This document shows, one piece after another, positions 2,155 through 64,000 of a stretch of DNA of 64,000 nucleotides. The stretch is from a virus: IMG/VR virus record IMGVR_UViG_3300027565_000001. One strand, given 5' to 3'. Position 1 is the stretch's first letter; every line of letters begins with the position of its first letter. A program made the translations under genes and the position numbers. The notes under the pieces were generated by a model that saw only the letters and a program-made list of their open reading frames with translations, had not been told where the DNA came from and made no database searches.

Positions 2155-2242
2155 GACGCACCTCCACTCTTGAGGACGCCAACGTAGCACTCACCCTAGT
2201 TTAGTCAACGGCATACGTCCCGAAATAGTCGAGGGAGCACCC

Positions 2243-2566
2243 ATGCAGTTCACGCCGCCTACCGGCAACATCTGCTTCAAGTGGCGCGGCGGCGATGCGA
2301 TGATTCTATGCGCTAACGGAACGATATGGTTTTGCCCCGAGATCGACCAAGCCAAAGCTGGACGTGAACTCGTCGAGAGCATGAGGCGGCATTGGTCGGC
2401 AATGGACCGTGAGAAGGCCAAGCGTATCGCCGATCTTGAGGGAATGGTACGCGACAAGGACGACATGCTGCAGGATATCGCCAGCGCCGCAGGGATCGAG
2501 ATCGGCCAGCAGTTCAGCGCGGCAGAGGTCATCCGGCGGTTGCGATCTTCTCCAGTTCCTTCTTGA
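2243..2566 (+). CDS. hypothetical protein (107 aa)
   Basis: GAGGGAG lies upstream of the ATG. The 3' end overlaps the convergent recT gene by 38 nt. Confidence 0.55.
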   Translation: MQFTPPTGNICFKWRGGDAMILCANGTIWFCPEIDQAKAGRELVESMRRHWSAMDREKAKRIADLEGMVRDKDDMLQDIASAAGIEIGQQFSAAEVIRRLRSSPVPS

Positions 2567-3539
2567 GGGCGAGGGCTGCGTCCTTCTCAAGCGCCCAGAA
2601 CTCCTGCAGTCCCAAACGATTACGTTCCCGCCATTTGAGCACCTCTCCCGCTTCTTCCTCGCCGGGTTTCATGTGCGCCTTGATGAAGGCCATGGCTTGG
2701 TCGTAGAACTTGCCTGCGGGCACGCGCTGCAAGGCTTCGCCGTCAAGCCAGTCGATCATGATGGCCTTGGCAGCACCGATCCGATCCAAACGCTCCTCGC
2801 GTTCCGCCTCGCTGATGATCTCGGTCGCGGTCAGATCGATGGTGTGGGCCTGGTCCAGCTCTCCTTCGGCGTAAGAACCCGAGGTTTCATTGGGCCAGCC
2901 CTTACGGATGGCGTCGGCCTCGGTGCATTTGGCCAGCATGGTCTCGGGCATGCTGCGCCAGTTCTTCTTGGTCGGATCGAGCTTGGATACGACTTCTCCA
3001 ACAGGAACGCGCTTCATCCGCGGCTTGCCAGCACGCTTGTGGCCTTCGGGCCAGACCTGGGGTGGATCGTAGGGCTCCCATTTGAACCCGTCCTCGCCGT
3101 CCTGAATGATCGGCGCCCGCTCATTCCACTTGAGCTTGGAGGTGATGGGGAACCATTCCCCGTGCGCGTGACGATAGACCGTGACCTCGCAGTCGAGAAT
3201 ACCCTTGGGGTTCGCCTCGCTGATCAGGGCATCATCGTAGGTGAAGCGCGGGGGCCTATCATCGGGGCGGTAGTTACCCGAACGCGCCGCTATCTTGCGA
3301 TAGAGCCCAATGCCAAGCACCGGAACAACGCGACGCTTCTCTTGGTCATGAGCGTCAAAAATAAAGAAGTAGATATCCTTAACAAAGGGGTTGGCCCCGT
3401 AAAGTTCGCAATACTCCACGGCGATGTCCAGCTCACTGGGGAGCAGATCTTTCCCGACCGTCTTCTTGAATAAGGCCAATCGGCGTGGATCTTGGCGAAC
3501 CAGCGCACCCGTCTTTCGCATGGGGATGATGTTGGGCAT
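2529..3539 (-). CDS. recT: RecT/Red-beta family single-strand annealing recombinase
   Basis: DIAVEYCELYGANPFVKDIYFFIF...VPVLGIGLYRKIAARSG and MLAKCTEADAIRKGWP blocks are typical of phage RecT. ATG at 3539 has GAGGA 5 nt upstream. Confidence 0.85.
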   Translation of the reverse strand: MPNIIPMRKTGALVRQDPRRLALFKKTVGKDLLPSELDIAVEYCELYGANPFVKDIYFFIFDAHDQEKRRVVPVLGIGLYRKIAARSGNYRPDDRPPRFTYDDALISEANPKGILDCEVTVYRHAHGEWFPITSKLKWNERAPIIQDGEDGFKWEPYDPPQVWPEGHKRAGKPRMKRVPVGEVVSKLDPTKKNWRSMPETMLAKCTEADAIRKGWPNETSGSYAEGELDQAHTIDLTATEIISEAEREERLDRIGAAKAIMIDWLDGEALQRVPAGKFYDQAMAFIKAHMKPGEEEAGEVLKWRERNRLGLQEFWALEKDAALALKKELEKIATAG

Positions 3540-3547
3540 GGCTATCC

Positions 3548-4060
3548 TCACGTCATGGTCAGTTGCACGGTTATGCCGCCGTTGCCGAGCGTCGCACCGG
3601 GGACGATCTCCTTGGCCTTCAGCGCCTCGGTGAGGAGTTTCTTGTCCAGCTTCGGATCCTGAGCCTTCCAGAATCTTGAAGGAATAGCGGCTTCGTCGGT
3701 TATCTCGACCTTGGGCGGAACTGCCTTGAGCACGATGGTGCCTGCGGCGGTTTCGATCCGTTTACGCTCGCTCAGTTCCATCGCCACCGCAAGGGATGTG
3801 CGCAGGTTTTCCTTCTGCTTTGACAAGCGGGAGACGCGGGCCTTGAGGTTCTCCAGCATGGAGTCGAGCCCGGCTTCCATTGCCTCGATCTCGGCAACCC
3901 GCATGATCCCCCGTTCGATGGCCTCCAGTAGTTCGGTTTGGCCCTCAACCGCATCGGCGCGCGCCTCAACATCATCCCCGAGAATGTCGCGAAAGTCGGC
4001 CAGCAAAACGCGAGCGGCTTCGATCTCCTGATGCAGGGCGTGGCTCGTATTGGTGCTCAT
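3548..4060 (-). CDS. Siphovirus Gp157-family protein
   Basis: 170-aa coiled-coil protein with C-terminal ...IPSRFWKAQDPKLDKKLLTEALKAKEIVPGATL typical of the Gp157 family. It sits directly upstream of recT, as is usual. Confidence 0.8.
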   Translation of the reverse strand: MSTNTSHALHQEIEAARVLLADFRDILGDDVEARADAVEGQTELLEAIERGIMRVAEIEAMEAGLDSMLENLKARVSRLSKQKENLRTSLAVAMELSERKRIETAAGTIVLKAVPPKVEITDEAAIPSRFWKAQDPKLDKKLLTEALKAKEIVPGATLGNGGITVQLTMT

Positions 4061-4224
4061 TGCTTCGTCTCGCTCTCAATCTGCCTGATCCGCTCCAACA
4101 GGTACTCCGCCTCAAGCTTTCGCCATTTCGCTAACTCGGCATAATGCGATTTTGAATTGCGCGCCATCTCCTCTGCATGGAACGCTATGCGGGTCTTGAG
4201 GAGGGCGATGATGCGGTCGATCAT
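4057..4224 (-). CDS. hypothetical small protein (55 aa)
   Basis: MIDRIIALLKTRIAFHAEEMARNSKSHYAELAKWRK.... The ATG overlaps the upstream stop (ATGA). The rest of the 101-aa track ORF is Arg/Gly-rich and non-protein-like. Confidence 0.5.
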   Translation of the reverse strand: MIDRIIALLKTRIAFHAEEMARNSKSHYAELAKWRKLEAEYLLERIRQIESETKQ

Positions 4225-4505
4225 GCTGTACTCTGGTGCCTCAACCTGCGCATCGGCGATGGAACAACGCCGCCCTTCTGCGCCAGTGCGTCCAACTCTC
4301 GCACTATGTCCGGTGCGAGATCCGTGAAACTCAAGATATTGGCGAGACGCGAGGCGTCCCACGGCGTCCTATCCCGCCTAAACCCGTCGATCTCAAGCTG
4401 TATCCCGCGGCGTAATTTCCCGAGGTTTGCCGCCTCTGCCCGGTCGCATAAGGCGTTGACGGTGTCGGCGGGAAGAGGGACTAAATGGGGTATGTCCGTG
4501 TCCAT
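4221..4505 (-). CDS. hypothetical protein (94 aa)
   Basis: GAAAGG lies 8 nt upstream of the ATG. Composition is protein-like. Confidence 0.6.
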   Translation of the reverse strand: MDTDIPHLVPLPADTVNALCDRAEAANLGKLRRGIQLEIDGFRRDRTPWDASRLANILSFTDLAPDIVRELDALAQKGGVVPSPMRRLRHQSTA

Positions 4506-4650
4506 TGACTAGCCTTTCCGCGAAACATGCCTCCAATAACCTGCGGGCCATCTCGGTGCGCGTCGGTATATCCAATTCCTCGCGGCGCACGTCGTCCAGC
4601 CTCTTGAGGAACGCGGCGTCGCATCTGGAAGAATTTGTCGCGCATGAGGT

Positions 4651-4908
4651 TCACGTTACCCGTTGGATCACTCTGTCGGCGCGGCTTGTGCCGATCTCTA
4701 TTATCGAGAATTTTGCCGTGTCAACGGATACTCGGCCCCCGCCATAGAGGGCGATAGGCATAGGTCCTCGATTGCCGTTCTGATGTGTGCGGAATAGTGC
4801 CTCCGCGCTCTCTTGCTCCACATGCGGATATGTGATGCGCGTCCAACTGCCCTCACGCAACGTAATGCTTGTGAAACCTGCATGTTTCTGTGCCCAAGAA
4901 AATCGCAT
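4651..4908 (-). CDS. hypothetical protein (85 aa)
   Basis: Internal ATG (MRFSWAQKHAGF...) is preceded by GAGGAAGAGG. The upstream part of the 154-aa track ORF is Arg/Gly-rich. Confidence 0.5.
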   Translation of the reverse strand: MRFSWAQKHAGFTSITLREGSWTRITYPHVEQESAEALFRTHQNGNRGPMPIALYGGGRVSVDTAKFSIIEIGTSRADRVIQRVT

Positions 4909-5143
4909 TGGCCTCTTCCTCATCCGATTGGGTGATCGCAACGCATAACGACGCGACGTGCGGTCTCCAAATAGATGGGCCAGCGAGCCCCCAAGCCCTG
5001 CGGCATCTGCGCGACCTACCCCGAAAGTGCGCCCCGCTTCAAACTCGTCAACTCGCTGGCCCTCGGCACATCGCTTCGCACGCTCAGCCCCGCAAGGTCC
5101 CCTCAATGACCCCATCGCGCGAAACGCCCCGCTGCCGAACCTA

Positions 5144-5350
5144 TTAGGCTATCTTGAGCAGCTTCCTGGAGACCGCATAATCGGTTTCCCACACATTGAA
5201 TCGATCCGACCATGTGAGCGTCGCTACCGTGCAGTCGTCCTTGTGTAGCCACACGCCTTTGCCGTGCTTGGGGCTGGGGTGATATCCCTCTCCCCGCAAA
5301 CGCTGGCGCGCTTCATGCAGGCGTTGATTTTTGTTGGCAGCGTCGATCAT
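5144..5350 (-). CDS. hypothetical protein (68 aa)
   Basis: Compact ORF whose start overlaps the stop of the upstream gene by 1 nt. Confidence 0.55.
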   Translation of the reverse strand: MIDAANKNQRLHEARQRLRGEGYHPSPKHGKGVWLHKDDCTVATLTWSDRFNVWETDYAVSRKLLKIA

Positions 5351-10227: not shown

Positions 10228-11358
10228 ATGCCCGACGACGCCCGCGACCTGTTGGAGCGAACCTACGGCCCCGGCAGCCAGTCCACAGAAGATGTGCTGG
10301 CTAATATGCCAGCACCGTCATTGTGGGAAAGGGCAAAAGCATATGCCGCCCCGGCCATGGGTATGTGGCATAATTCCGAGGATGCCCTAGCGCGCGCCAA
10401 CGATCAGTTCAATCAGCGCGCGGCCGGCGATCTGCAACGGATCGGCGTCACATCAGACCCGGATACAGTTGGAATGCTGACCACCCTGATCGGCGGCGTC
10501 CGTTCGCCAAGTTCGCCAGTCCGCATTCCCAACCCGATCAAAGCCTATCATGTCTCCCCGCATGATTACGATGTCCCAAGTCTTGAGCACGTTGGATCCG
10601 GTCAGGGCGCGCAATCATACGGGCATGGTCTTTACGCTGCCGAGAGCGCGGGCGCTAGAGATCAATATTTCGAGGACTTTAAAGCACAATCTAACGACCT
10701 CTATGGCAGAGATCCTATCCGCTACGATTGGAACATCCACGCCACACCAGAGCAGTTCTTGGATTGGGATAGGCCGGTGCCGAGCAACGTCAACGCCCGT
10801 GTCCGTCAAATATACAAAGATGCGGCAAAAGATACCGGCTTTGCTACTAAATTGTTGCCAGGATCATTGACCGGCGAGGAGGTTCTTCATCATCTGGATA
10901 ACGCCTTTCAATGGGGGCGAAGAAACGCAGAAAGTTCCGCAACTGATGCGCTGCGTGATATAGGCATCCCCGGCATCCGCTACCTAGACCAGAAATCGCG
11001 CGAGGGATTTTCTACCGCCCGCATCGACGGAAAGCCCGTCGCCGCCAACGACATGATTGGCTCCAATGCCATCGGTGCTCTGAAGGACGCTGGCGGTTCG
11101 CCACGGGACGCCATAGCTCAGCTTGAAACCGCAGCGAAGAATACGCGGTATCCCGATGAACGCGAGCAATGGACGCGGGCGGCACAGCTCATCAAGGATG
11201 GGCGCATTGTCTTCGATGAGAAGGCGGCTACCTCCAACTACGTCGTCTGGTCCCCGGAGATCATCGAGATACTGAAGAAGTACGGCATCGCCGGTCCGGT
11301 TGCGGCTTCAATACTCCACCAAGCCTACGGCGACAAGTCGGAAGGGACGCCGCCATGA
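10228..11358 (+). CDS. ADP-ribosyltransferase-like protein (PARP/ART-PolyVal-like core), 376 aa
   Basis: [23 protein letters not shown] (compare PARP GKGIYFADMVSKSANY), [12 protein letters not shown] and [17 protein letters not shown] blocks. Paralogue of 32268..33161. The family call is an inference. Confidence 0.7.
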
Positions 11359-11807
11359 TCCGCTCCTCGCAGTATCGCTCCTTCAAGTACGGTTCCCGCG
11401 GACATAATAGGGACTTGGGTGCCGCCGCGACTTCGCGCGGCGCGGCGGTAATCACCGAGAGCGTGGTCACTGCGGATCGGCAGCGTGAGTGCCTCGATTA
11501 CATCAGGGGGCGCATAGCGGAAACCGCCGTTGCGCCCAGCTACGAGGAAATCAGGATCGCACTCAGGCTGCACTCCAAGTCCGGGGTGCACCGCCTCATC
11601 ATGGCACTGGAGAGGCGGGGGGAGATCAGGAGACTGGGGCATAGGGCAAGGGCGATAGAGGTCGTCAATCCACAGGCAAGAGAGCAGGTTTCCCCAGCAA
11701 AAGCCCCGGTCGCGAAGCCATTGCTGGACATTACGGGGGCGGCATTCTACGTCGTAGAGAAATCTCCAGGCGAGGATGCTAGGCTCGTGCCGATGGAGGC
11801 GAAATGA
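11355..11807 (+). CDS. LexA N-terminal DNA-binding-domain protein lacking the S24 peptidase domain
   Basis: [63 protein letters not shown] closely follows the alphaproteobacterial LexA winged-helix domain. No Ala-Gly/Ser/Lys cleavage module follows. Hairpin copy K lies in codons 22-32, so the true start may be the GTG at 11463. Confidence 0.75.
11419..11448 (-). repeat. GC-hairpin repeat, copy K
   Basis: gtgccgccgc-gacttcgc-gcggcgcggcgg, 14 nt upstream of the GTG at 11463. Confidence 0.75.
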
Positions 11808-27864: not shown

Positions 27865-27894
27865 CGCCGCGCCGCACTTTATGCGGCGGCACCC
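27865..27894 (+). repeat. GC-hairpin repeat, copy E
   Basis: cgccgcgccgc-acttta-tgcggcggcaccc, 4 nt after the OMP stop. Confidence 0.85.
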
Positions 27895-27978
27895 ATAATC
27901 CATAATCACCGAGATCCGCAGCCGGCCGCTGACCGCTCTTCTCCTCAACCAGCACTAAAGGCCAGTTGCGGTGCCCCA

Positions 27979-28015
27979 GGTCGCCGCCTTTCCTGACAGT
28001 GGGGGGGCGGCGACC
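27979..28015 (+). other. perfect 10-bp GC hairpin in the 5' region of the 28037 gene
   Basis: GGTCGCCGCC, 17-nt loop, GGCGGCGACC, read directly from the sequence. Confidence 0.6.
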
Positions 28016-28036
28016 GTCCCATTAACCGGAGTCCTG

Positions 28037-28588
28037 ATGGACGATCTTCCGACCTTCACATCTGGATCGATGCAGACGAGCAGCACTTCAGGCGCGATGC
28101 TCTCGGGCGCCATCACGGCGCTGAATGCGCTGAATACCAACCACACCTACACGGTCAATCCGGTGCAGCAATACACCCAGGATCTGGCCCGCTATTCCGG
28201 GCTGCATCAGTTCGGCAATCTCAATTCCCTCACGCCAACGCAGATCACCCTCGGAGGATCATCATCCGTGTCCGCCCCTGTCGCCGTGAAACCCAAGCTG
28301 CGCGTCTGCCGCGTGTTCCTGGTTGACTGCGACGAGCGCATCCCCGTCGATAAGCGCATTATCTACCGCACCGACGAATTGATCACGGAGAGCGACGACC
28401 GCGAGTTGTTCTTCGACATCCCGGTGAAGGATCTGCTCGCCAAGCATAACGATTATCGCAAGACGGTGGAGTGGGAGGAGAAGACCGCCGATGGCACCAA
28501 GACTCGCACGGGCCTGAAGGAAATCCGCATCCGCGACCTGATCATGTCGGTCACGACCATTGCCGAGTTCGCCGGGCGCACTCACTGA
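28037..28588 (+). CDS. hypothetical protein (183 aa)
   Basis: The ATG (MDDLPTF...) has GGAG 5 nt upstream. Ser/Thr-rich N-terminus and a charged C-terminal domain. No family recognised. Confidence 0.6.
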   Translation: MDDLPTFTSGSMQTSSTSGAMLSGAITALNALNTNHTYTVNPVQQYTQDLARYSGLHQFGNLNSLTPTQITLGGSSSVSAPVAVKPKLRVCRVFLVDCDERIPVDKRIIYRTDELITESDDRELFFDIPVKDLLAKHNDYRKTVEWEEKTADGTKTRTGLKEIRIRDLIMSVTTIAEFAGRTH

Positions 28589-28599
28589 GCGGTGATTAT

Positions 28600-28628
28600 C
28601 GCCACGCCGCACTTCATGCGGCGGCACC
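28600..28628 (+). repeat. GC-hairpin repeat, copy F
   Basis: cgccacgccgc-acttca-tgcggcggcacc, 11 nt after the stop at 28588. A 28-nt perfect inverted copy of H. Confidence 0.85.
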
Positions 28629-28645: not shown

Positions 28646-28825
28646 ATGATCGACCTCGCCACCATCCGCACCATCATCATCGTCGCCCTGCTCATGAGCA
28701 TTGCCGCCATAGCCGCTGTTAGCTTGGGAGGGTGTGCTTCCTTCAAGGATGATCAGAATAACCTGTTCTCAATTCACTACGACGCCAAGGGGATGTACTC
28801 GCGTCAGGACAGGGCGCGGTTCTAG
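28646..28825 (+). CDS. small lipoprotein (59 aa)
   Basis: MIDLATIRTIIIVALLMSIAAIAAVSLGG/C, a signal peptide with a lipobox. Below the cut-off when trimmed from the track ORF. Confidence 0.6.
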   Translation: MIDLATIRTIIIVALLMSIAAIAAVSLGGCASFKDDQNNLFSIHYDAKGMYSRQDRARF

Positions 28826-28866: not shown

Positions 28867-28898
28867 TTTTCAACAGGAGAGGCTAAGAAAGCTCTGAG

Positions 28899-29873
28899 AT
28901 GATCGACCGCCGCAAGCTCATGCAGGTGCTGGGGCAGGTATTTGGCGCAGCGGCACTGATGCCACTCGCCGAACTGACGAAGGCTACCGCGTCACCAATT
29001 CCAGCGGTATTGCGTGCCATGGCTGCCGACATGCAGAAGACGGCAGACGCCTTCCGTGCAGGGGAAGCGCCTGAGCTGCTGGCCGGTACCTACGACAGGA
29101 TATTTCAGCATCGGCCATCGGAGCGTTCCATCGAGCAGACGGTGCATGTCGCGTATTTCGCCGACCCTGATCACTCCGGCCAACGCTTCCTCTACCAAAG
29201 CGAGCTCGCGGAATACGGATTGGGCTTTCTCGTCGTCAGGGACGACGATCCTCGCAAGACAATCGGCGGCGTTCCCGTTGCGCGCTTGGCGGATTTACCG
29301 CAGATGCTGCGCAGCCTCGCCATTTCCTTCCAGAGCATGCGTGAGATCCACGCGGCCGAACTGTTCGATAATGCCGATGTCTACGATGCTCACACCGTCG
29401 GCGATGGCGTCGCCATGTGCTCGCCGATGCATCCCTGCGATGGAGCCACTTGGGCCAATGCGCTGGCGACGCCGTGCGATCTTAACGGTCATTCCCTGCG
29501 CCATGTCCTGGAGCAGATACGCACGACCTTCGTCGATCAGCGCGGCTTGCGTATCAGCGCACGCGGCCGGCGCCTCGTCGTGCCGCTGGCCATCGCCTAT
29601 GACGCTGAGCGCGCTATCGCTCAGCTGAAAGCTGACGATCCCTTCAATACGTTCCGGTTCGATTATGAACCGGTCGTCTGGGATTACTTGACCAAGGAAC
29701 ACCGATGGTTCGTCCTGACGACTTGCCAGGGCTTCCATTGGTTCGAGCGCGAGCCGTTCTCCGTTGCCTGCGATGTGGATGTGAACAAGGATTGCGTGCA
29801 CGTCATAGGCCATGAGAAGCGCGCCTTCGCTTGTCATGATCCACGTGCGGTCTTTATGAGTGCCGCCGCATGA
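28899..29873 (+). CDS. major-capsid-protein paralogue with N-terminal Tat-like signal peptide (324 aa)
   Basis: The C-terminal ~190 aa align with the bona fide capsid protein at 63409..64000 (TVGDGVAMCSPMHPCDGAT / IVGDGKALYDTGHPVDGST; HRWFVLTTCQGFHWFEREPF / YAWFVLTKNDGLVFFERDAY). N-terminus is MIDRRKLMQVLGQVFGAAALMPLAELTKATA/S. Confidence 0.8.
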   Translation: MIDRRKLMQVLGQVFGAAALMPLAELTKATASPIPAVLRAMAADMQKTADAFRAGEAPELLAGTYDRIFQHRPSERSIEQTVHVAYFADPDHSGQRFLYQSELAEYGLGFLVVRDDDPRKTIGGVPVARLADLPQMLRSLAISFQSMREIHAAELFDNADVYDAHTVGDGVAMCSPMHPCDGATWANALATPCDLNGHSLRHVLEQIRTTFVDQRGLRISARGRRLVVPLAIAYDAERAIAQLKADDPFNTFRFDYEPVVWDYLTKEHRWFVLTTCQGFHWFEREPFSVACDVDVNKDCVHVIGHEKRAFACHDPRAVFMSAAA

Positions 29874-29888
29874 AGTGCGGCGTGGCGG
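29860..29888 (-). repeat. GC-hairpin repeat, copy H
   Basis: gtgccgccgc-atgaagt-gcggcgtggcgg. It overlaps the stop of the capsid paralogue and lies 17 nt upstream of the ATG at 29906. Confidence 0.85.
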
Positions 29889-29905: not shown

Positions 29906-30202
29906 ATGGAAAATCTGCAGAAGAGTGCTCAACAGGACTTGAAACGGCTGATCAGCCAAATCGAACGCCTGGCCGAGGAACGCAAGGCGCTTGGCGCCGA
30001 CATCAGCGACAAGCTGAAGGAAGCCAAGAGCCGAGGCTTGGACCCGAAGATCATCCGCAAGGTGCTCGCCTTGCGCAAGAAGACAGAGGCCGAGCGCGAA
30101 GAGGAAGAGGCGATCTTAGCGACGTATCTGCACGCTTTGCAAGGGACACCTCTCGGCGACTACGCCGACCGCCAGGCGGCGCGCGAGATGGCCTCGGTAT
30201 AA
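29906..30202 (+). CDS. gapR: GapR-like (DUF2312) nucleoid-associated protein
   Basis: AQQDLKRLISQIERLAEERKALGADISDKLKEAKSRGLDPKIIRKVLALRKKTEAEREEEEAILATYLHAL aligns along its length with Caulobacter GapR (from memory). AGGAG lies 5 nt upstream. Confidence 0.8.
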   Translation: MENLQKSAQQDLKRLISQIERLAEERKALGADISDKLKEAKSRGLDPKIIRKVLALRKKTEAEREEEEAILATYLHALQGTPLGDYADRQAAREMASV

Positions 30203-31527: not shown

Positions 31528-31716
31528 TCATTTGCGTATCGCCGCGGCGTCACTGGCCAGAGGCGCCATCGGCACATATAGCCCGATGCCGAACACGAGG
31601 CCGAAGATAAGTGCCACCGCTATGGTGCAGGCGATTGCGGTCTGATAGCGCTCGGGCAGCGATTTATGCCGTTTGCTATGGTGATGCTCGTGGACGATTG
31701 CGTGGTCGTGAGTCAC
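31528..31716 (-). CDS. small membrane protein with His-rich N-terminus (62 aa, GTG start)
   Basis: GTGA overlap with the upstream stop. VTHDHAIVHEHHHSKRHK...IACTIAVALIFGLVFGIGLYV. Confidence 0.45.
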   Translation of the reverse strand: MTHDHAIVHEHHHSKRHKSLPERYQTAIACTIAVALIFGLVFGIGLYVPMAPLASDAAAIRK

Positions 31717-32006
31717 TTGGCCCTCGCCCGTGTCTTGGTCGCTACCGCGGCCTCGATTGCCGACAATCGCTGCTCCATCGTGTCGAGGCGCGATGGGCCG
31801 ATCGAGGGCATGGACATCGTTTTCATGACGGTGATGGGGTTGCTCACGACAGCCTTGGTCTGGGTCCAATTCTGCGCCATCAAAGTGCCGCCGAGCGTTA
31901 CCGCCCCGGTGCCCAGGACGAGCAGGATCTGGTTGAAGGAGGGCAGCAGGCCCATGATGAGGGGCCACCAGTAGGGGGCCGGCTGGGTAACGGTTGCGTC
32001 GGCCAT
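31713..32006 (-). CDS. holin-like membrane protein (97 aa)
   Basis: Hydrophobic stretch YWWPLIMGLLPSFNQILLVLGTGAVTLGGTLMA and a charged C-terminus, positioned in the lysis cassette. Confidence 0.55.
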   Translation of the reverse strand: MADATVTQPAPYWWPLIMGLLPSFNQILLVLGTGAVTLGGTLMAQNWTQTKAVVSNPITVMKTMSMPSIGPSRLDTMEQRLSAIEAAVATKTRARAK

Positions 32007-32010
32007 GGGA

Positions 32011-32271
32011 TTACTCCTTTGCCTTCGTGGTCAGCTTCTTCACGTACTTTTGCAGTTGGGTCAGTTTGAGCGCCTCGCGCCCGTACTTGGCGCGCAGTTC
32101 GGCCATCGCATGCACCAGATCGTCGCCGACATGAACCGGCTGCAGCTGTTCAGGGGGCACCATGACGCGCGAGGAGGGCGGGGCGATCTGGCTGGGTATC
32201 GCCATGCCACCCAGTCCTGCGCAACCGGCGAGAAAGAGCGAGATGATCGTCGCGGCAAGCATGCGCATCAC
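32011..32271 (-). CDS. lipoprotein, candidate outer-membrane spanin component (86 aa)
   Basis: MMRMLAATIISLFLAG/C lipobox, then Pro-rich AIPSQIAPPSSRVMVPPEQLQP. Confidence 0.6.
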   Translation of the reverse strand: MMRMLAATIISLFLAGCAGLGGMAIPSQIAPPSSRVMVPPEQLQPVHVGDDLVHAMAELRAKYGREALKLTQLQKYVKKLTTKAKE

Positions 32272-33409: not shown

Positions 33410-34840
33410 TCAGGATACCTTGGAGGGCAGGAACGGCGAGGACGCAGATAATGATTGGCCGGCGCCGCGCGGGAGATAACGGCCGTCTTTATGAGCGGAT
33501 ATCAATCCCCTTTCTATTCCGAACTTGACGCCGACGTAGGCCAGACCTCCCGTAAGTAAGACCCCGCCAAGAAAGAGCAGGAACGGATGCTGCGAGGCCA
33601 GATGCGATATTGCGCCGCCGTTGCCTTGGCTAGTATCGACGAACTGATTGGCGATGGCGAGGCCGCCTCCTCCGAGCGTTGTGCCGCCCCAAAACCAGTT
33701 CTTGAATGTTTTGATGCTGTCCGCTAAGCGGCTACCCTGGTCCGCCAGATCGTTGACCCTGGTGAACGACAAGTTCTCGAACGTGGGCCACATCGATGCC
33801 TTGGCGGGCTCGGGTTCGGGACTTTGTGTGCCCTGCGGCATTGCGGCAACGGTTGGAGGATTATCGGATACGTCGGCGCTATCGGCCCGTGCGGAGACGA
33901 CCGGCGCGGCGAGACTTTGCACCTCGGCGGCATCGCGCAGCGCATCCATGGTCTTCGCGTCGACCTTGCCCGTGCGCGGCAGTCCATGTGTTCCTTGGAA
34001 GGCTGTCATTGCGCGCGCGGTTTGCGTGCCGAACTGGCCATCGGCAGGGCCAGATAGAACGCCAGCCTTCTTAAGCAGCCGCTGCACCTCGACGACGGAG
34101 GCGCCGCGTGCGCCCAGGGTCAACTCATCGGTCAGTTCGATTGAGGGAGCCGGCACCGATGGAACCATGACGCCTGCGACCTCGGTTAGATGTGGCGGCC
34201 AAATCCGTTTCGCCCGAGCTAGGTGCGCCTCCACATCGCTGAGCCCGTTGGTACCCCCGTTGATCGCCCTCCGTACCGCTACAACGTCATCCCGGTCGGC
34301 CTTCTCGTTGCAGCGCTTTTCCTGCCATTCCAATAATGCGGCATGGATAGCATTGCGCGGCTCGGAGAGCTGATCGATAGGACAACCGATCTTGCCCGCA
34401 TAAGCTTCGTGCGCGGCTCTCCCGGTGATCTGTTCGATGCCGCATCCCCGGTATTTGAAACCGTCACCCTCTGCGGTATTGCCGAGCATATGCGCCATGC
34501 GTGGGCAGCCCAATCCATACACACGCTCGGCCAGCGCATAGGGATTATGCGCTAAGGTCGCCGCTTCTTCCTGGGTATGGATGCCCTTGTCGTGGAACAC
34601 CTCCAGTATCCTCTGGGCCGAATAGGACATGTCCTCCCAGAGTATGGTGAGGTTGGTTTCCCCGCACCACGTCGCGATCAGGTGGCACCAGCGCAGGTTG
34701 GATGTGATGCCGAACTGCTCCAGCAGATCGCCCGAGGTGGTGATCGCGCCGACATAGCCGTCCCACACCGCAGCCCTTGCAGGATTGGTCGGCCTGGGGA
34801 CGAGGATAGCCAGTTGCTGGCGCGTGATGAGGATGGGCAT
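33410..34840 (-). CDS. endolysin: GH19-like muramidase/chitinase domain, PG-binding domain and C-terminal hydrophobic segments
   Basis: WCGETN...LGNTAEGDGFKYRGCGIEQITGRAAH (GH19-like). LGARGASVVEVQRLLKKAGVLSGPADGQFGTQTARAMTAFQGTHGLPRTGKVD (PG_binding_1-like). C-terminal FWGGTTLGGGGLAIANQFV and FLLFLGGVLLTGGLAYVGV. Confidence 0.85.
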   Translation of the reverse strand: MPILITRQQLAILVPRPTNPARAAVWDGYVGAITTSGDLLEQFGITSNLRWCHLIATWCGETNLTILWEDMSYSAQRILEVFHDKGIHTQEEAATLAHNPYALAERVYGLGCPRMAHMLGNTAEGDGFKYRGCGIEQITGRAAHEAYAGKIGCPIDQLSEPRNAIHAALLEWQEKRCNEKADRDDVVAVRRAINGGTNGLSDVEAHLARAKRIWPPHLTEVAGVMVPSVPAPSIELTDELTLGARGASVVEVQRLLKKAGVLSGPADGQFGTQTARAMTAFQGTHGLPRTGKVDAKTMDALRDAAEVQSLAAPVVSARADSADVSDNPPTVAAMPQGTQSPEPEPAKASMWPTFENLSFTRVNDLADQGSRLADSIKTFKNWFWGGTTLGGGGLAIANQFVDTSQGNGGAISHLASQHPFLLFLGGVLLTGGLAYVGVKFGIERGLISAHKDGRYLPRGAGQSLSASSPFLPSKVS

Positions 34841-55344: not shown

Positions 55345-56457
55345 TCATGCCTCCTGAAGGAAGTCTTCAAGGAAGCGAAAATGAAGGCCAGCACAGCGCC
55401 CGTTCCTATAGATGGCCGCAGAAACCAATGATGTCGTTTTGCCGCAAGCGCGCGCTGCATCACCAATGCTATCAAACACAGTGCCAGACTCAATACAAAT
55501 GACCTTCTTTCGTTGTTTAGCCCACGTTCGTACCCAACCGGACATACGCCGCTCCTTGATGGCGGCAAGTTCTTCTGCGCTCTTGACAGGTCTCACGTAA
55601 GCTGGCTTGTCCGCATATCTAAAGCGCAGCCCGCTGACTGTAGTGGCGCCGTTTCTGCAGCACTGCACAACAGTCATCTGCGCAAGTTTATAGTGTTTTG
55701 CTGCGGCTCTGCCGCTCGGATAAGCCTTCCCATCAGTGATGCATACGACTGGTCGCGACCTAGATAGACGGAGCTTCTCTACGCGTGCTCCCAGACGTGC
55801 CTTGCGTTCTTCCATGATCGTATTGCATTGTTCAAGCGTCAGGGGCTTCGCAGCGTGTGCAAAGAAAAGACCGTTAGCACTCACCTCGCGACCGCTGCAA
55901 GAACTGCAGATACGACTGCAAGATACGCCGTAGGCAGCGACAGCTAGCTTTATGCCCTCAAACCAGCGCCCATCGTTCAGACATACGACCGGCCGGAAGT
56001 TCAGCTTCATTGCGGCCCTGGTCGCTAGCGTCTTGCGTCGCTGTTCGGCCGTCCACTTACGGCCTCTCATTAGAGGAATTTGCTTCCTGCGCCTTTCCTC
56101 TGTCCATGCCGCCCGAAGCGCCTTGGCCATGTAGGCGTGACGTTCTGGAGTCCACTTTGCGCCGTTTGGCGCATACTTGCCGAGCAGGATGTTGTACGCT
56201 GGCCTCAGCGTCGCAATGTAATGGCGTTCGCGATCTGCGGCCTCTCGTTCGGAGAGGCCGTCCTCAAGTACCGAGAACTCGAATGCATCGCCGCCGTATT
56301 TCTTAATCGCTTTGCCAAAGATGAGCGCATTGGCAATTCCCTTTGGCGAAGTGGCACTCCAGATGTGCATATAGGCGCGGCGTTCCAATGAAGTCCGCGT
56401 AGCGCCGATGTATAGCTTCCCGTTCACCTTGTTGCGGGCCACATAGACCAAAGCCAT
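55345..56457 (-). CDS. GIY-YIG homing endonuclease with three NUMOD/IENR-like DNA-binding repeats
   Basis: MALVYVARNKVNGKLYIGATRTSLERR...EREAADRERHYI...YNI (GIY-YIG core), then 3x V(V/I)C(L/I)xxGxx(F/Y)...GL(F/R)F(R/A). GC looks lower than in the flanks. Confidence 0.8.
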   Translation of the reverse strand: MALVYVARNKVNGKLYIGATRTSLERRAYMHIWSATSPKGIANALIFGKAIKKYGGDAFEFSVLEDGLSEREAADRERHYIATLRPAYNILLGKYAPNGAKWTPERHAYMAKALRAAWTEERRRKQIPLMRGRKWTAEQRRKTLATRAAMKLNFRPVVCLNDGRWFEGIKLAVAAYGVSCSRICSSCSGREVSANGLFFAHAAKPLTLEQCNTIMEERKARLGARVEKLRLSRSRPVVCITDGKAYPSGRAAAKHYKLAQMTVVQCCRNGATTVSGLRFRYADKPAYVRPVKSAEELAAIKERRMSGWVRTWAKQRKKVICIESGTVFDSIGDAARACGKTTSLVSAAIYRNGRCAGLHFRFLEDFLQEA

Positions 56458-56479
56458 TGCATGGGAGCCTTCTGCATCT

Positions 56480-57124
56480 TCAGGTTCCCCAGTATTGCTG
56501 CAACGACGGCATAATGTAAATAGGTACTTGCTCCTTATCCGTGGTCGCTGCGACTGACCACGCATCCTCCGCGTCTGCCTTGCGCTGTGGCTCCAGATCC
56601 CGCGCGTAGATGCGGGCTAGGCGATGGGCAAGCTTGGCGACATAGCAGTCCAGCCAACGATAGGGTACGTCGACCGTTGCCCCATTCGCGAGGCTGGCAT
56701 CCTGCACCTGGCGCAATTGCCTGACGTTGAAGACGTACGTTGCCGCAGCATCTGGCACCGGCCAGAAAGTAATCTGCGGAGTAGCGAGAAGATTTAGCCA
56801 AAAGGCAGTGGGCGGCCCTTGCTGGGATTTATTGGCAATGGCCGAATATTCAAATGTACTGTAAGCAAAGATAAGACGATCTGTTGAGACGCCACCAGAC
56901 GTTGTTGTGATATATGGCGCCTGGAAAGCCACCAAGTGAGGAGACAAAGTATACGTTGCTGTACCGGCTGTAAGTGTCTGCGTATACAGCTCGTCTAAGA
57001 ATAAGTTTGGGACCTTATTGCTTAGCTCAACTTGCGTGAGATTGCACTCATTGTAGGCGTCGTAAAGATGTTGTGCGCCGATCTCGGGTGGACGTATGCC
57101 AATACGGGCAAACGCCGAAATCAT
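56480..57124 (-). CDS. structural (adaptor-like) protein, 214 aa
   Basis: ...ITFWPVPDAAATYVFNVRQLR... parallels 50866..51606. Confidence 0.7.
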   Translation of the reverse strand: MISAFARIGIRPPEIGAQHLYDAYNECNLTQVELSNKVPNLFLDELYTQTLTAGTATYTLSPHLVAFQAPYITTTSGGVSTDRLIFAYSTFEYSAIANKSQQGPPTAFWLNLLATPQITFWPVPDAAATYVFNVRQLRQVQDASLANGATVDVPYRWLDCYVAKLAHRLARIYARDLEPQRKADAEDAWSVAATTDKEQVPIYIMPSLQQYWGT

Positions 57125-63408: not shown

Positions 63409-64000
63409 TCAAGCGGTCGGGAAAGTTCCGAACGAGGCTCTCCAATCGACGTAAATCGGCTGCGCTCTCTGGTATGCTTTCACCAGCAGGTTGTCCGTGG
63501 TGTTGTCGACCCACATGTCCGTCTCGTAGGCGTCGCGCTCGAAGAACACGAGGCCGTCGTTCTTGGTCAGCACGAACCACGCATAGTTGCTCGTGAGGTA
63601 ATCGCAGATCATGTAGCCGGTGATCCCGCCCTCGACGTTGCGACCCGCGTTGATGTCGTTCTCGTCCGTGCCCGGACGAAGCTCGGTCTTGGTGATCCGT
63701 TCGGCCACGTCCATCAAATTGACCGGAACCAAGAGGCCATCGGGGCGGGGGCGCCCCATGATCTTGAGGGCGCGCTCGTCGACCCAGTTGGTGCGGATGT
63801 TCTTGATCGCCTGCATCAACGAGGCTTCGTTGAGGTCGAGGTCGGTCGAGAACTTGTTCGCCGCAGTGGAACCGTCTACGGGATGCCCCGTGTCGTAGAG
63901 CGCCTTGCCGTCGCCCACGATTGACGCATCGTAGGTCGTGCCGTTGTTGAAGACGTTGAAGGCGTTGACCTCCCAGAACTCCTTGAAGGCCTTGGCAAGA
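63409..64000 (-). CDS. major capsid protein, C-terminal ~197 aa (gene continues beyond the right window edge)
   Basis: The frame stays open upstream of the track GTG to nt 64000 (...LAKAFKEFWEVNAFNVFNNGTTYDASIVGDGKALYDTGHP...). The pattern is typical of HK97-fold podovirus-type coat proteins, and the gene heads the structural operon. Confidence 0.85.
   Translation of the reverse strand, partial: LAKAFKEFWEVNAFNVFNNGTTYDASIVGDGKALYDTGHPVDGSTAANKFSTDLDLNEASLMQAIKNIRTNWVDERALKIMGRPRPDGLLVPVNLMDVAERITKTELRPGTDENDINAGRNVEGGITGYMICDYLTSNYAWFVLTKNDGLVFFERDAYETDMWVDNTTDNLLVKAYQRAQPIYVDWRASFGTFPTA

Follow-up and report, generated by a model that had tools for sequence, protein, structure and literature searches.

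A paralogue of the major capsid protein with a predicted twin-arginine export signal in metagenomic phages

Why would a phage carry, besides its capsid gene, a second capsid-like gene whose product begins in the manner of an exported protein? This question is raised by the IMG/VR virus record IMGVR_UViG_3300027565_000001, of which we analyzed a stretch of 64,000 nucleotides—hereafter called the “window”. An open reading frame (ORF) on its plus strand (28899..29873, including the stop codon; ORF listing and BLASTP) encodes a 324-residue homologue of the major capsid protein (MCP), and the N-terminus of this homologue, MIDRRKLMQVLGQVFGAAALMPLAELTKATA/S, resembles a signal peptide of the twin-arginine translocation (Tat) pathway. 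The explanation that we favor, with a probability of about 0.6, is that the product is a Tat-exported, repurposed duplicate of the phage's own HK97-fold MCP, acting in the cell envelope.

How is the product related to the resident capsid protein? An in-frame TAA at 28884-28886 precedes the ATG at 28899, which is therefore the earliest possible start, and a Shine-Dalgarno-like AGGAGAGG can be read from the sequence at 28875..28882 on the plus strand, with a long spacing of 16 nt to the ATG. The resident MCP gene lies about 34 kb away on the opposite strand, and the window end cuts it down to the C-terminal 196 codons (63409-63999, minus strand; identified by translation). BLASTP aligns this fragment with the paralogue at 36% identity over 191 residues (E=1e-31), in keeping with the roughly 35-40% over the last ~190 residues estimated by eye in an earlier reading made without database searches—hereafter called the “sequence-only reading”. 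With the fragment as the query, the complete MCP, P0200, was found in the database; it comprises 305 residues, starts with MAINTSQIRDLL (MAINTSQIRDLLRPGL), and has no signal. P0200 matches PF25209 and PF10124, and at E≤1e-10 its relatives number more than 650. The paralogue aligns with it at 32.6% identity over 291 residues (E=4e-40), and this whole-length match to the 305-residue protein, the comparison that the sequence-only reading had asked for, bears out its claim that the paralogue is full-length. Tyr65 of the paralogue aligns with Tyr30 of the MCP, with 64 and 29 preceding residues, respectively. After removal of the 31-residue predicted signal, 33 residues remain before Tyr65, a normal length for the N-arm; the body of the capsid protein is thus complete, and the signal has been added to it.

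Profile comparisons extend this relationship. The alignment of the paralogue with an ordinary-MCP profile by hhalign has a probability of 100% (E=5e-71), and tblastn matches the paralogue to annotated phage MCPs at 25-33% identity. The window paralogue itself matches no Pfam family at E≤0.1, including PF25209 and PF10124, and its Pfam, PHROG, and PADLOC scans were empty; PF10124 is matched weakly by 12 of 24 relatives (best E=4.9e-4). The NCBIfam scan of the window paralogue returned no TAT-signal model, and its sole match is a capsid-fusion model far below threshold.

The predicted structure confirms the HK97 fold, for which the sequence-only reading had suggested this very check. The AlphaFold model, which rests on a 130-sequence alignment (single-sequence input gave a predicted local distance difference test score, pLDDT, of 32), has a pLDDT of 93.3 and a predicted template modelling score of 0.87. 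The best Foldseek matches are encapsulins and the capsid proteins of T5, HK97, and SU10 at a probability of 1.00, together with predicted viral MCPs. The pLDDT exceeds 90 from about residue 31 onward, and only residues 1-30 are of low confidence, forming a lone helix. The model, Foldseek, and hhalign accordingly delimit a mature HK97-fold body of residues 32-324 (28992..29870, plus strand), in which the E-loop is shortened and which contains a DDDPR motif (residues 114-119) and seven cysteines. The predicted twin-arginine signal peptide occupies residues 1-31 (28899..28991, plus strand), as judged from the family alignment, the low-confidence helix in the model, and the matches of homologues to TAT_signal and TIGR01409.

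Can the N-terminus of the window paralogue be recognized as a Tat signal by itself? Its parts are those of a signal peptide: the n-region MIDRRK is followed by 18 uncharged residues, LMQVLGQVFGAAALMPLA, the c-region ELTKATA, and an ATA/S cleavage site, and the best 12-residue Kyte-Doolittle score is 1.82. Three observations weigh against the assignment. The motif D-R-R-K-L-M-Q deviates from the consensus S/T-R-R-x-F-L-K; the window paralogue matches neither PF10518 nor TIGR01409, even at E≤10; and a loose rule—two arginines (RR) with 13 or more uncharged residues after them—is satisfied by 16 of the 405 six-frame ORFs of the Arg-rich window. Taken alone, the window N-terminus is only suggestive of a Tat signal, and we did not rest the signal call on this single sequence because the loose rule is unspecific in the window.

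The case for the signal is mainly comparative. The clade to which the paralogue belongs came to light solely in an exhaustive search with HMMER, run over 1.84 billion cluster representatives; a word-indexed search gave only the protein itself and distant ordinary MCPs, and a word-indexed search with the clade profile was dominated by ordinary MCPs. The exhaustive search found 25 proteins at E≤1e-30, and the best ones align from query residues 3-11 onward. Among the top 150 matches, 28 have the RR followed by the uncharged stretch, and the correction of one gene start, that of P0076, brings the number to about 29 cluster representatives. One further protein in the top 150 fits the loose rule, and its RR is at residue 57, not at the N-terminus. 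The P0076 gene (L014, 9974-10954) is called in the database from an internal GTG; an upstream ATG, where the DNA reads MTEVDRRELMVGVGAIFGAAAMG, adds MTEVDRREL and restores the twin arginine. Start-codon miscalls of this kind can conceal a signal in automated annotation.

An alignment of 27 sequences, with a mean column identity of 33%, contains 12 invariant columns, among which are Arg4 and Arg5, and the RR is invariant in all of the 27-29 signal-bearing sequences compared. When the sequences are anchored on the RR (n=29), the consensus is [DE]-[LI]-[T 20/S 6]-R-R-x-[AT]-[IL 23]-[K 16]-L-L-[G 19], which corresponds to the canonical S/T-R-R-x-F-L-K except that Phe is replaced by Ala or Thr. Next comes an Ala/Gly-rich, moderately hydrophobic stretch (best 12-residue Kyte-Doolittle score 1.78±0.30 in the family), and an AxA follows the stretch in 24 of the 29 members. 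Of 24 relatives, 4 match PF10518 (TAT_signal; best E=3.4e-4) and 3 match TIGR01409 (best E=0.015). These comparisons support the view that the paralogue N-terminus is a conserved, predicted Tat-type export signal. The Tat signal proposed in the sequence-only reading is thereby supported: the N-terminal sequence and the ATA/S site are as described and the RR is invariant in about 29 relatives, while the window protein lacks a match of its own to the TAT hidden Markov models (HMMs).

If the paralogue bears an export signal, does it still serve as a shell subunit? In a neighbour-joining tree built without the signal region, all of the signal-bearing proteins fall into one clade; the resident-type MCPs lie near it, with one further MCP group between. 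An ordinary, signal-less MCP of 303-306 residues is present in every phage with enough flanking DNA, and in L013 and L016 a single contig holds the genes of both the paralogue and the MCP. The E-loop segment measures 40.3±0.5 residues (range 40-42) in 96 diverse MCPs and 35.4±7.7 residues (range 22-53) in the clade, with 29 in the window copy; this comparison of loop lengths ignores shared ancestry. Two further loop regions are also much more variable in the clade than in the MCPs. Moreover, the two proteins evolve out of step. When the window phage is compared with the L013 phage, identity amounts to 85% for the MCPs and to 33% for the paralogues; the values are 50% and 35% for the L016 phage, and 72% and 31% for the phage probably represented by L014 (MCP P0265). 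The comparative data support the view that the paralogue is probably no longer a lattice-forming shell subunit, because its E-loop length is free and its divergence is far faster than that of the MCP.

These data also bear on the possibility that the paralogue is a minor structural capsid protein, located at the vertex or near the portal in the manner of T4 gp24, with an N-terminal segment that serves as a propeptide or assembly-targeting sequence and is removed at head maturation. The mature part does retain all of the HK97 elements, paralogous vertex proteins exist in T4, and the gene neighbours the terminase or portal genes in four lineages. The clade, in addition, is not uniform, which counts against the export reading: about five members either lack the signal (P0069, P0071, P0072, and P0079) or have a degenerate one (P0073), and the signal-less P0079 gene sits inside the head module, between the portal and MCP genes. 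However, a co-assembling subunit should track the MCP, and neither the 85% versus 33% identities nor the unconstrained E-loop length fits this expectation. The N-terminus is composed like a signal peptide and unlike a scaffold, with homologues that match TAT_signal, and the window gene lies in an early-type rightward block beside genes for an outer-membrane protein (OMP) and a lipoprotein. Furthermore, SU10—with which this phage group shares the Pfam families of the portal (PF23899; L013, L014, and L016) and the adaptor (PF24175; L003)—needs one MCP only, from which it builds both pentamers and hexamers (PMC9509320). We therefore regard a minor structural role as unlikely, and the comparative behaviour argues, with the sequence-only reading, against a stoichiometric virion component. 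Of the refuting outcomes named in that reading, those on the fold, the signal, and the virion role were examined by computation, and its interpretation withstood all three.

The same rapid divergence would fit an arms race, and thus a cytoplasmic capsid mimic—a decoy for capsid-sensing defences or a dominant-negative poison of competitors—in which the RR is irrelevant or serves as a membrane tether. Capsid-sensing defence systems are known, and the gene sits among accessory genes. A decoy, however, needs no signal, yet few features of the clade are as well conserved as the RR and the hydrophobic stretch; it should also resemble the sensed MCP, but the E-loop and the other loops drift freely. 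Neither the paralogue nor its neighbours have a PADLOC match. A mimic of this kind is, in our judgment, improbable.

Could the gene instead be a decaying or functionless capsid-gene duplicate, which resembles a signal-bearing protein by chance? As a single-sequence motif, the RR pattern is not rare in the window, as noted above, and the window paralogue has no Pfam match. In the family, however, the paralogue ORFs of about 300-375 residues remain intact across lineages down to 30% identity, with the 12 invariant columns including the RR, and frameshifts or stop codons in most relatives were not observed. The fold prediction is confident, and the identical protein occurs on six contigs. A dead duplicate is consequently very improbable.

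Do the cysteines point to the periplasm? The window paralogue has seven (residues 174, 180, 193, 276, 291, 299, and 312) and the complete resident MCP has one, the very contrast that the sequence-only reading had drawn from the visible part of the MCP and had found to fit a disulfide-bonded protein. The enrichment holds clade-wide, with 4.45 cysteines per protein in the clade versus 1.76 (Mann-Whitney p=7e-12), although this statistic ignores shared ancestry. The most conserved clade-specific cysteine is Cys312, which is present in 69%. In the clade alignment, the cysteine columns do not co-occur cleanly as disulfide pairs, which speaks against a periplasmic, disulfide-bonded protein; of the disulfide argument, the enrichment is thus retained and the clean covariation of pairs is missing.

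Next, we consider the genes around the paralogue. The plus-strand order is small ORFs, an OMP barrel, a 205-residue protein, a lipoprotein, the paralogue, and a GapR-like protein, and this rightward block converges on the leftward lysis and structural block. The OMP gene (27129/27147-27860, plus strand), two genes upstream of the paralogue, encodes an outer-membrane beta-barrel protein (OMP_b-brl E=2e-11, OmpA_membrane E=2.6e-5) with a Sec-type signal recognized by eye (…AHPAKA/GG). The 205-residue protein between the OMP and lipoprotein genes (27971..28588, plus strand) has no Pfam, PHROG, or PADLOC match. Directly upstream of the paralogue, the ORF at 28646..28825 (plus strand; translation, and gene call in L001) encodes a predicted lipoprotein of 59 residues, the hydrophobic N-terminus of which ends in the lipobox LGGC, again by eye. 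The next gene downstream (29906..30202, plus strand) encodes the GapR-like DNA-binding protein (Pfam GapR_DNA-bd E=3.4e-23). The barrel and the lipoprotein that the sequence-only reading had placed beside the paralogue are thus both found.

This module recurs in three other lineages, with paralogues 37-40% identical to the window copy. In L006 and L009, the paralogue is immediately preceded by an OMP_b-brl gene; in L007/L008, a Porin_4 gene lies two genes upstream. The GapR-like gene follows the paralogue in L006, L007, and L009, and is hence a conserved landmark of the module. A 305-residue ORF after the L007 copy was considered as a second capsid copy and was rejected by eye from its translation. 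Against an obligatory connection with the envelope stands the arrangement in L013, L014, L015, and L016, where the paralogue gene immediately precedes the terminase or portal genes and no OMP gene is nearby. An association with envelope genes is therefore common in the family without holding throughout, and the location “outside the virion module” given in the sequence-only reading applies to the window and the three other lineages, not to these four. The paralogue gene behaves like a mobile accessory gene.

Two of the lineages with the module have further small genes at this site. Membrane ORFs of 47-49 residues overlap the paralogue stop codon in L006 (11071-11214) and L009 (4252-4401), which suggests translational coupling with the paralogue. 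In L006, a second protein with a Tat-like N-terminus (MGKLSRRAMLGTAVGGALAAP, beginning with MGKLSRRAMLG) is encoded at 11217-11645; it has 142 residues and no Pfam match.

The overlapping membrane ORFs are also compatible with the possibility that the signal remains uncleaved and holds the capsid-like domain on the periplasmic side of the inner membrane, there obstructing or guiding the entry of DNA or influencing the timing of lysis. Uncleaved Tat signal anchors exist, as in the Rieske proteins, and 5 of the 29 members have no clear AxA. The stretch is short and only moderately hydrophobic, however, with two Gln among its 18 residues and the score of 1.82 given above, and the AxA stands at the expected distance in the 24 other members. 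A membrane-anchored form thus appears unlikely.

A short palindromic element accompanies the genes of the block. Its 18-nt core, CCGCACTTCATGCGGCGG, overlaps the paralogue stop codon (29863..29880, minus strand; pattern search, alignment, and folds), and the element of about 35 nt follows three consecutive genes, those of the OMP (27872-27889, plus strand), the 205-residue protein (28607-28624, plus strand), and the paralogue (29863-29880, minus strand). The core reads CCGCACTT[C/T]ATGCGGCGG and is followed by CATAAT, or by CATAAA in the third copy, which is inverted. The three matches compare with 0.24 expected, and the hairpins have folding energies of -14 to -20 kcal/mol. Its possible roles are transcription termination, RNA processing, and association with a promoter. 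Around the paralogue gene, scans for promoters and terminators gave results at chance level.

On the basis of these observations, we propose how the exported duplicate would reach and serve the cell envelope. Judging from its position, the paralogue would be transcribed with the rightward non-structural block, and the product would fold in the cytoplasm. The Tat pathway handles folded proteins, and cytoplasmic folding would thus explain why the signal is of the Tat type instead of the Sec type. Then, as the conserved motif suggests, TatABC would export the paralogue, and signal peptidase I would cut after ATA31. The neighbourhood suggests a soluble, perhaps Cys-stabilized periplasmic protein located beside the phage OMP barrel or porin, the lipoprotein, and the small membrane proteins. 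There, the protein may assume an accessory role in the envelope, for which we favor the exclusion of superinfecting related phages or the conditioning of the envelope. One could imagine that a capsid-like surface in the periplasm binds the ejected internal virion proteins of incoming relatives. Superinfection exclusion is a speculative assignment, and the clues to it are circumstantial: the predicted signal, the OMP and lipoprotein neighbours, and the rapid divergence.

The exported paralogue might also still self-assemble, into periplasmic capsomer-like rings, a two-dimensional lattice, or a small shell docked to the phage OMP. We consider such an assembly improbable; if it were formed, it would be the first HK97-fold assembly outside the cytoplasm, shielding the infected cell or controlling the traffic across the envelope.

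What kind of phage carries this gene? The window encodes a RecT-like protein, a DNA methyltransferase, a primosomal protein, a LexA-domain protein, and an endolysin, and its virion genes include those for the MCP, an SU10-type adaptor, and proteins of very large size, one of which has a transglycosylase-type domain. Of the six metagenome contigs that carry the identical paralogue, five are in the 50-200 kb class and one has 104,801 bp, and the contigs with the MCP of the window phage have 104,776 and 104,887 bp. These lengths point to a phage genome of about 105 kb that has been assembled repeatedly. The checks proposed in the sequence-only reading presuppose a lysogen, a framing that finds no support. 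No integrase was found among the window ORFs scanned. A megablast search with 24 kb of the window gave no match among the GenBank phages. GapR is an alphaproteobacterial protein, and by its presence alone the GapR-like gene hints at an alphaproteobacterial host.

Several other genes of the window and of its relatives deserve mention. In the early region, the protein with the LexA DNA-binding domain (150 residues; 11355-11807, plus strand; E=7.5e-13) may be a phage regulator. The leftward lysis cassette comprises the endolysin gene (33410-34840, minus strand), with a PG_binding_1 domain, and, at 31713-32271 (minus strand), an 86-residue ORF with the lipobox LFLAGC, which is o-spanin-like, beside a 97-residue membrane protein. 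A GIY-YIG/HNH homing-endonuclease gene (55345-56565, minus strand) lies within the structural block, between virion protein genes. In L006, Cas2, Cas1, and a 540-residue Cas12f/TnpB-like gene stand in a row (2232-5317), a few kb from the capsid paralogue, in what looks like a phage-borne miniature CRISPR-Cas locus. The presumed large terminases of L013 (5833-8727, 964 residues) and L014 (12917-15646, 909 residues) are oversized, with intein or LAGLIDADG homing-endonuclease domains; they are called terminases by position, no terminase domain having been reported in them. The head-gene regions of the phage group (L003, 1047-2168; L013, 15242-15763; L016, 9161-9586) also include a gene for a glycosyltransferase, which runs on the opposite strand, and a Cpn10/GroES-like gene.

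How widespread is the family, and has such a protein been described before? We know it from about 30 small metagenomic clusters, and the contexts examined are all phage-like contigs with terminase, portal, MCP, or lysis genes. Two patterns found no relative in 185,579 GTDB species-representative genomes or in IMG/VR, with the limit that neither covers the whole clade: one was the window protein alone, and the other was the degenerate ERRxFGCxDPRA, which the window protein (EKRAFACHDPRA) does not match. Among the cultured phages in GenBank, no second signal-bearing copy was found, and the 16 tblastn matches all represent one ordinary MCP gene each (the gene context was inspected in two cases). 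Full-text literature searches yielded no report of a signal-bearing or periplasmic HK97-fold protein, in agreement with the sequence-only reading, which was aware of no description of an exported HK97-fold capsid homologue. HK97-fold proteins are otherwise known only as builders of shells in the cytoplasm: the capsids of phages and herpesviruses, gene transfer agents, satellites, and encapsulins.

A Tat-signalled capsid duplicate, if our proposal is correct, would move the HK97 fold into the periplasm, and a virus would have put a copy of its shell protein to accessory use in the envelope of its host. The system could then show how phages use the Tat pathway, and how capsid-like surfaces play roles outside the virion, such as superinfection exclusion. 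For annotation, the lesson is that a match to “major capsid protein” does not always mark a capsid gene.

Finally, we compared the paralogue with known systems. Its functional counterparts would be lambda Lom and Bor, T5 Llp, and T4 Imm and Sp, which are directed to the envelope, serve accessory roles, and have genes outside the core structural set; there is no kinship in sequence or fold. To the Mu gpT-like/Phage_capsid_4 MCPs (PF10124 and PF25209), including P0200, the paralogue is homologous over its whole mature length, and it shares their predicted fold, with the N-arm helix, the hairpin of the E-loop, the spine helix, and the P and A domains. It differs from them in the predicted signal of ~31 residues, the sub-threshold Pfam scores, the free loop lengths, the richness in cysteine, the much faster evolution, and the location of its gene away from the MCP gene. 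In comparison with the Tat signals described by TIGR01409 and PF10518, the family has a similar consensus near the N-terminus, an Ala/Gly-rich, moderately hydrophobic stretch, an AxA, and, in some members (by eye, uncounted), basic residues in the c-region; the differences are that the D-R-R-K-L-M-Q of the window copy misses the HMMs, and that the passenger is a viral shell protein instead of a redox enzyme or another usual Tat cargo. T4, with gp24 beside gp23, likewise has two HK97-fold paralogues in one phage genome, whereas the window paralogue is not adjacent to the MCP gene, evolves out of step with it, and has a predicted export signal. Encapsulins, the top structural matches, are another case in which the capsid fold is reused for a non-virion role; they are cytoplasmic, cell-encoded, and paired with cargo genes, whereas the paralogue family resides on phage-like metagenome contigs and carries a predicted signal for export.

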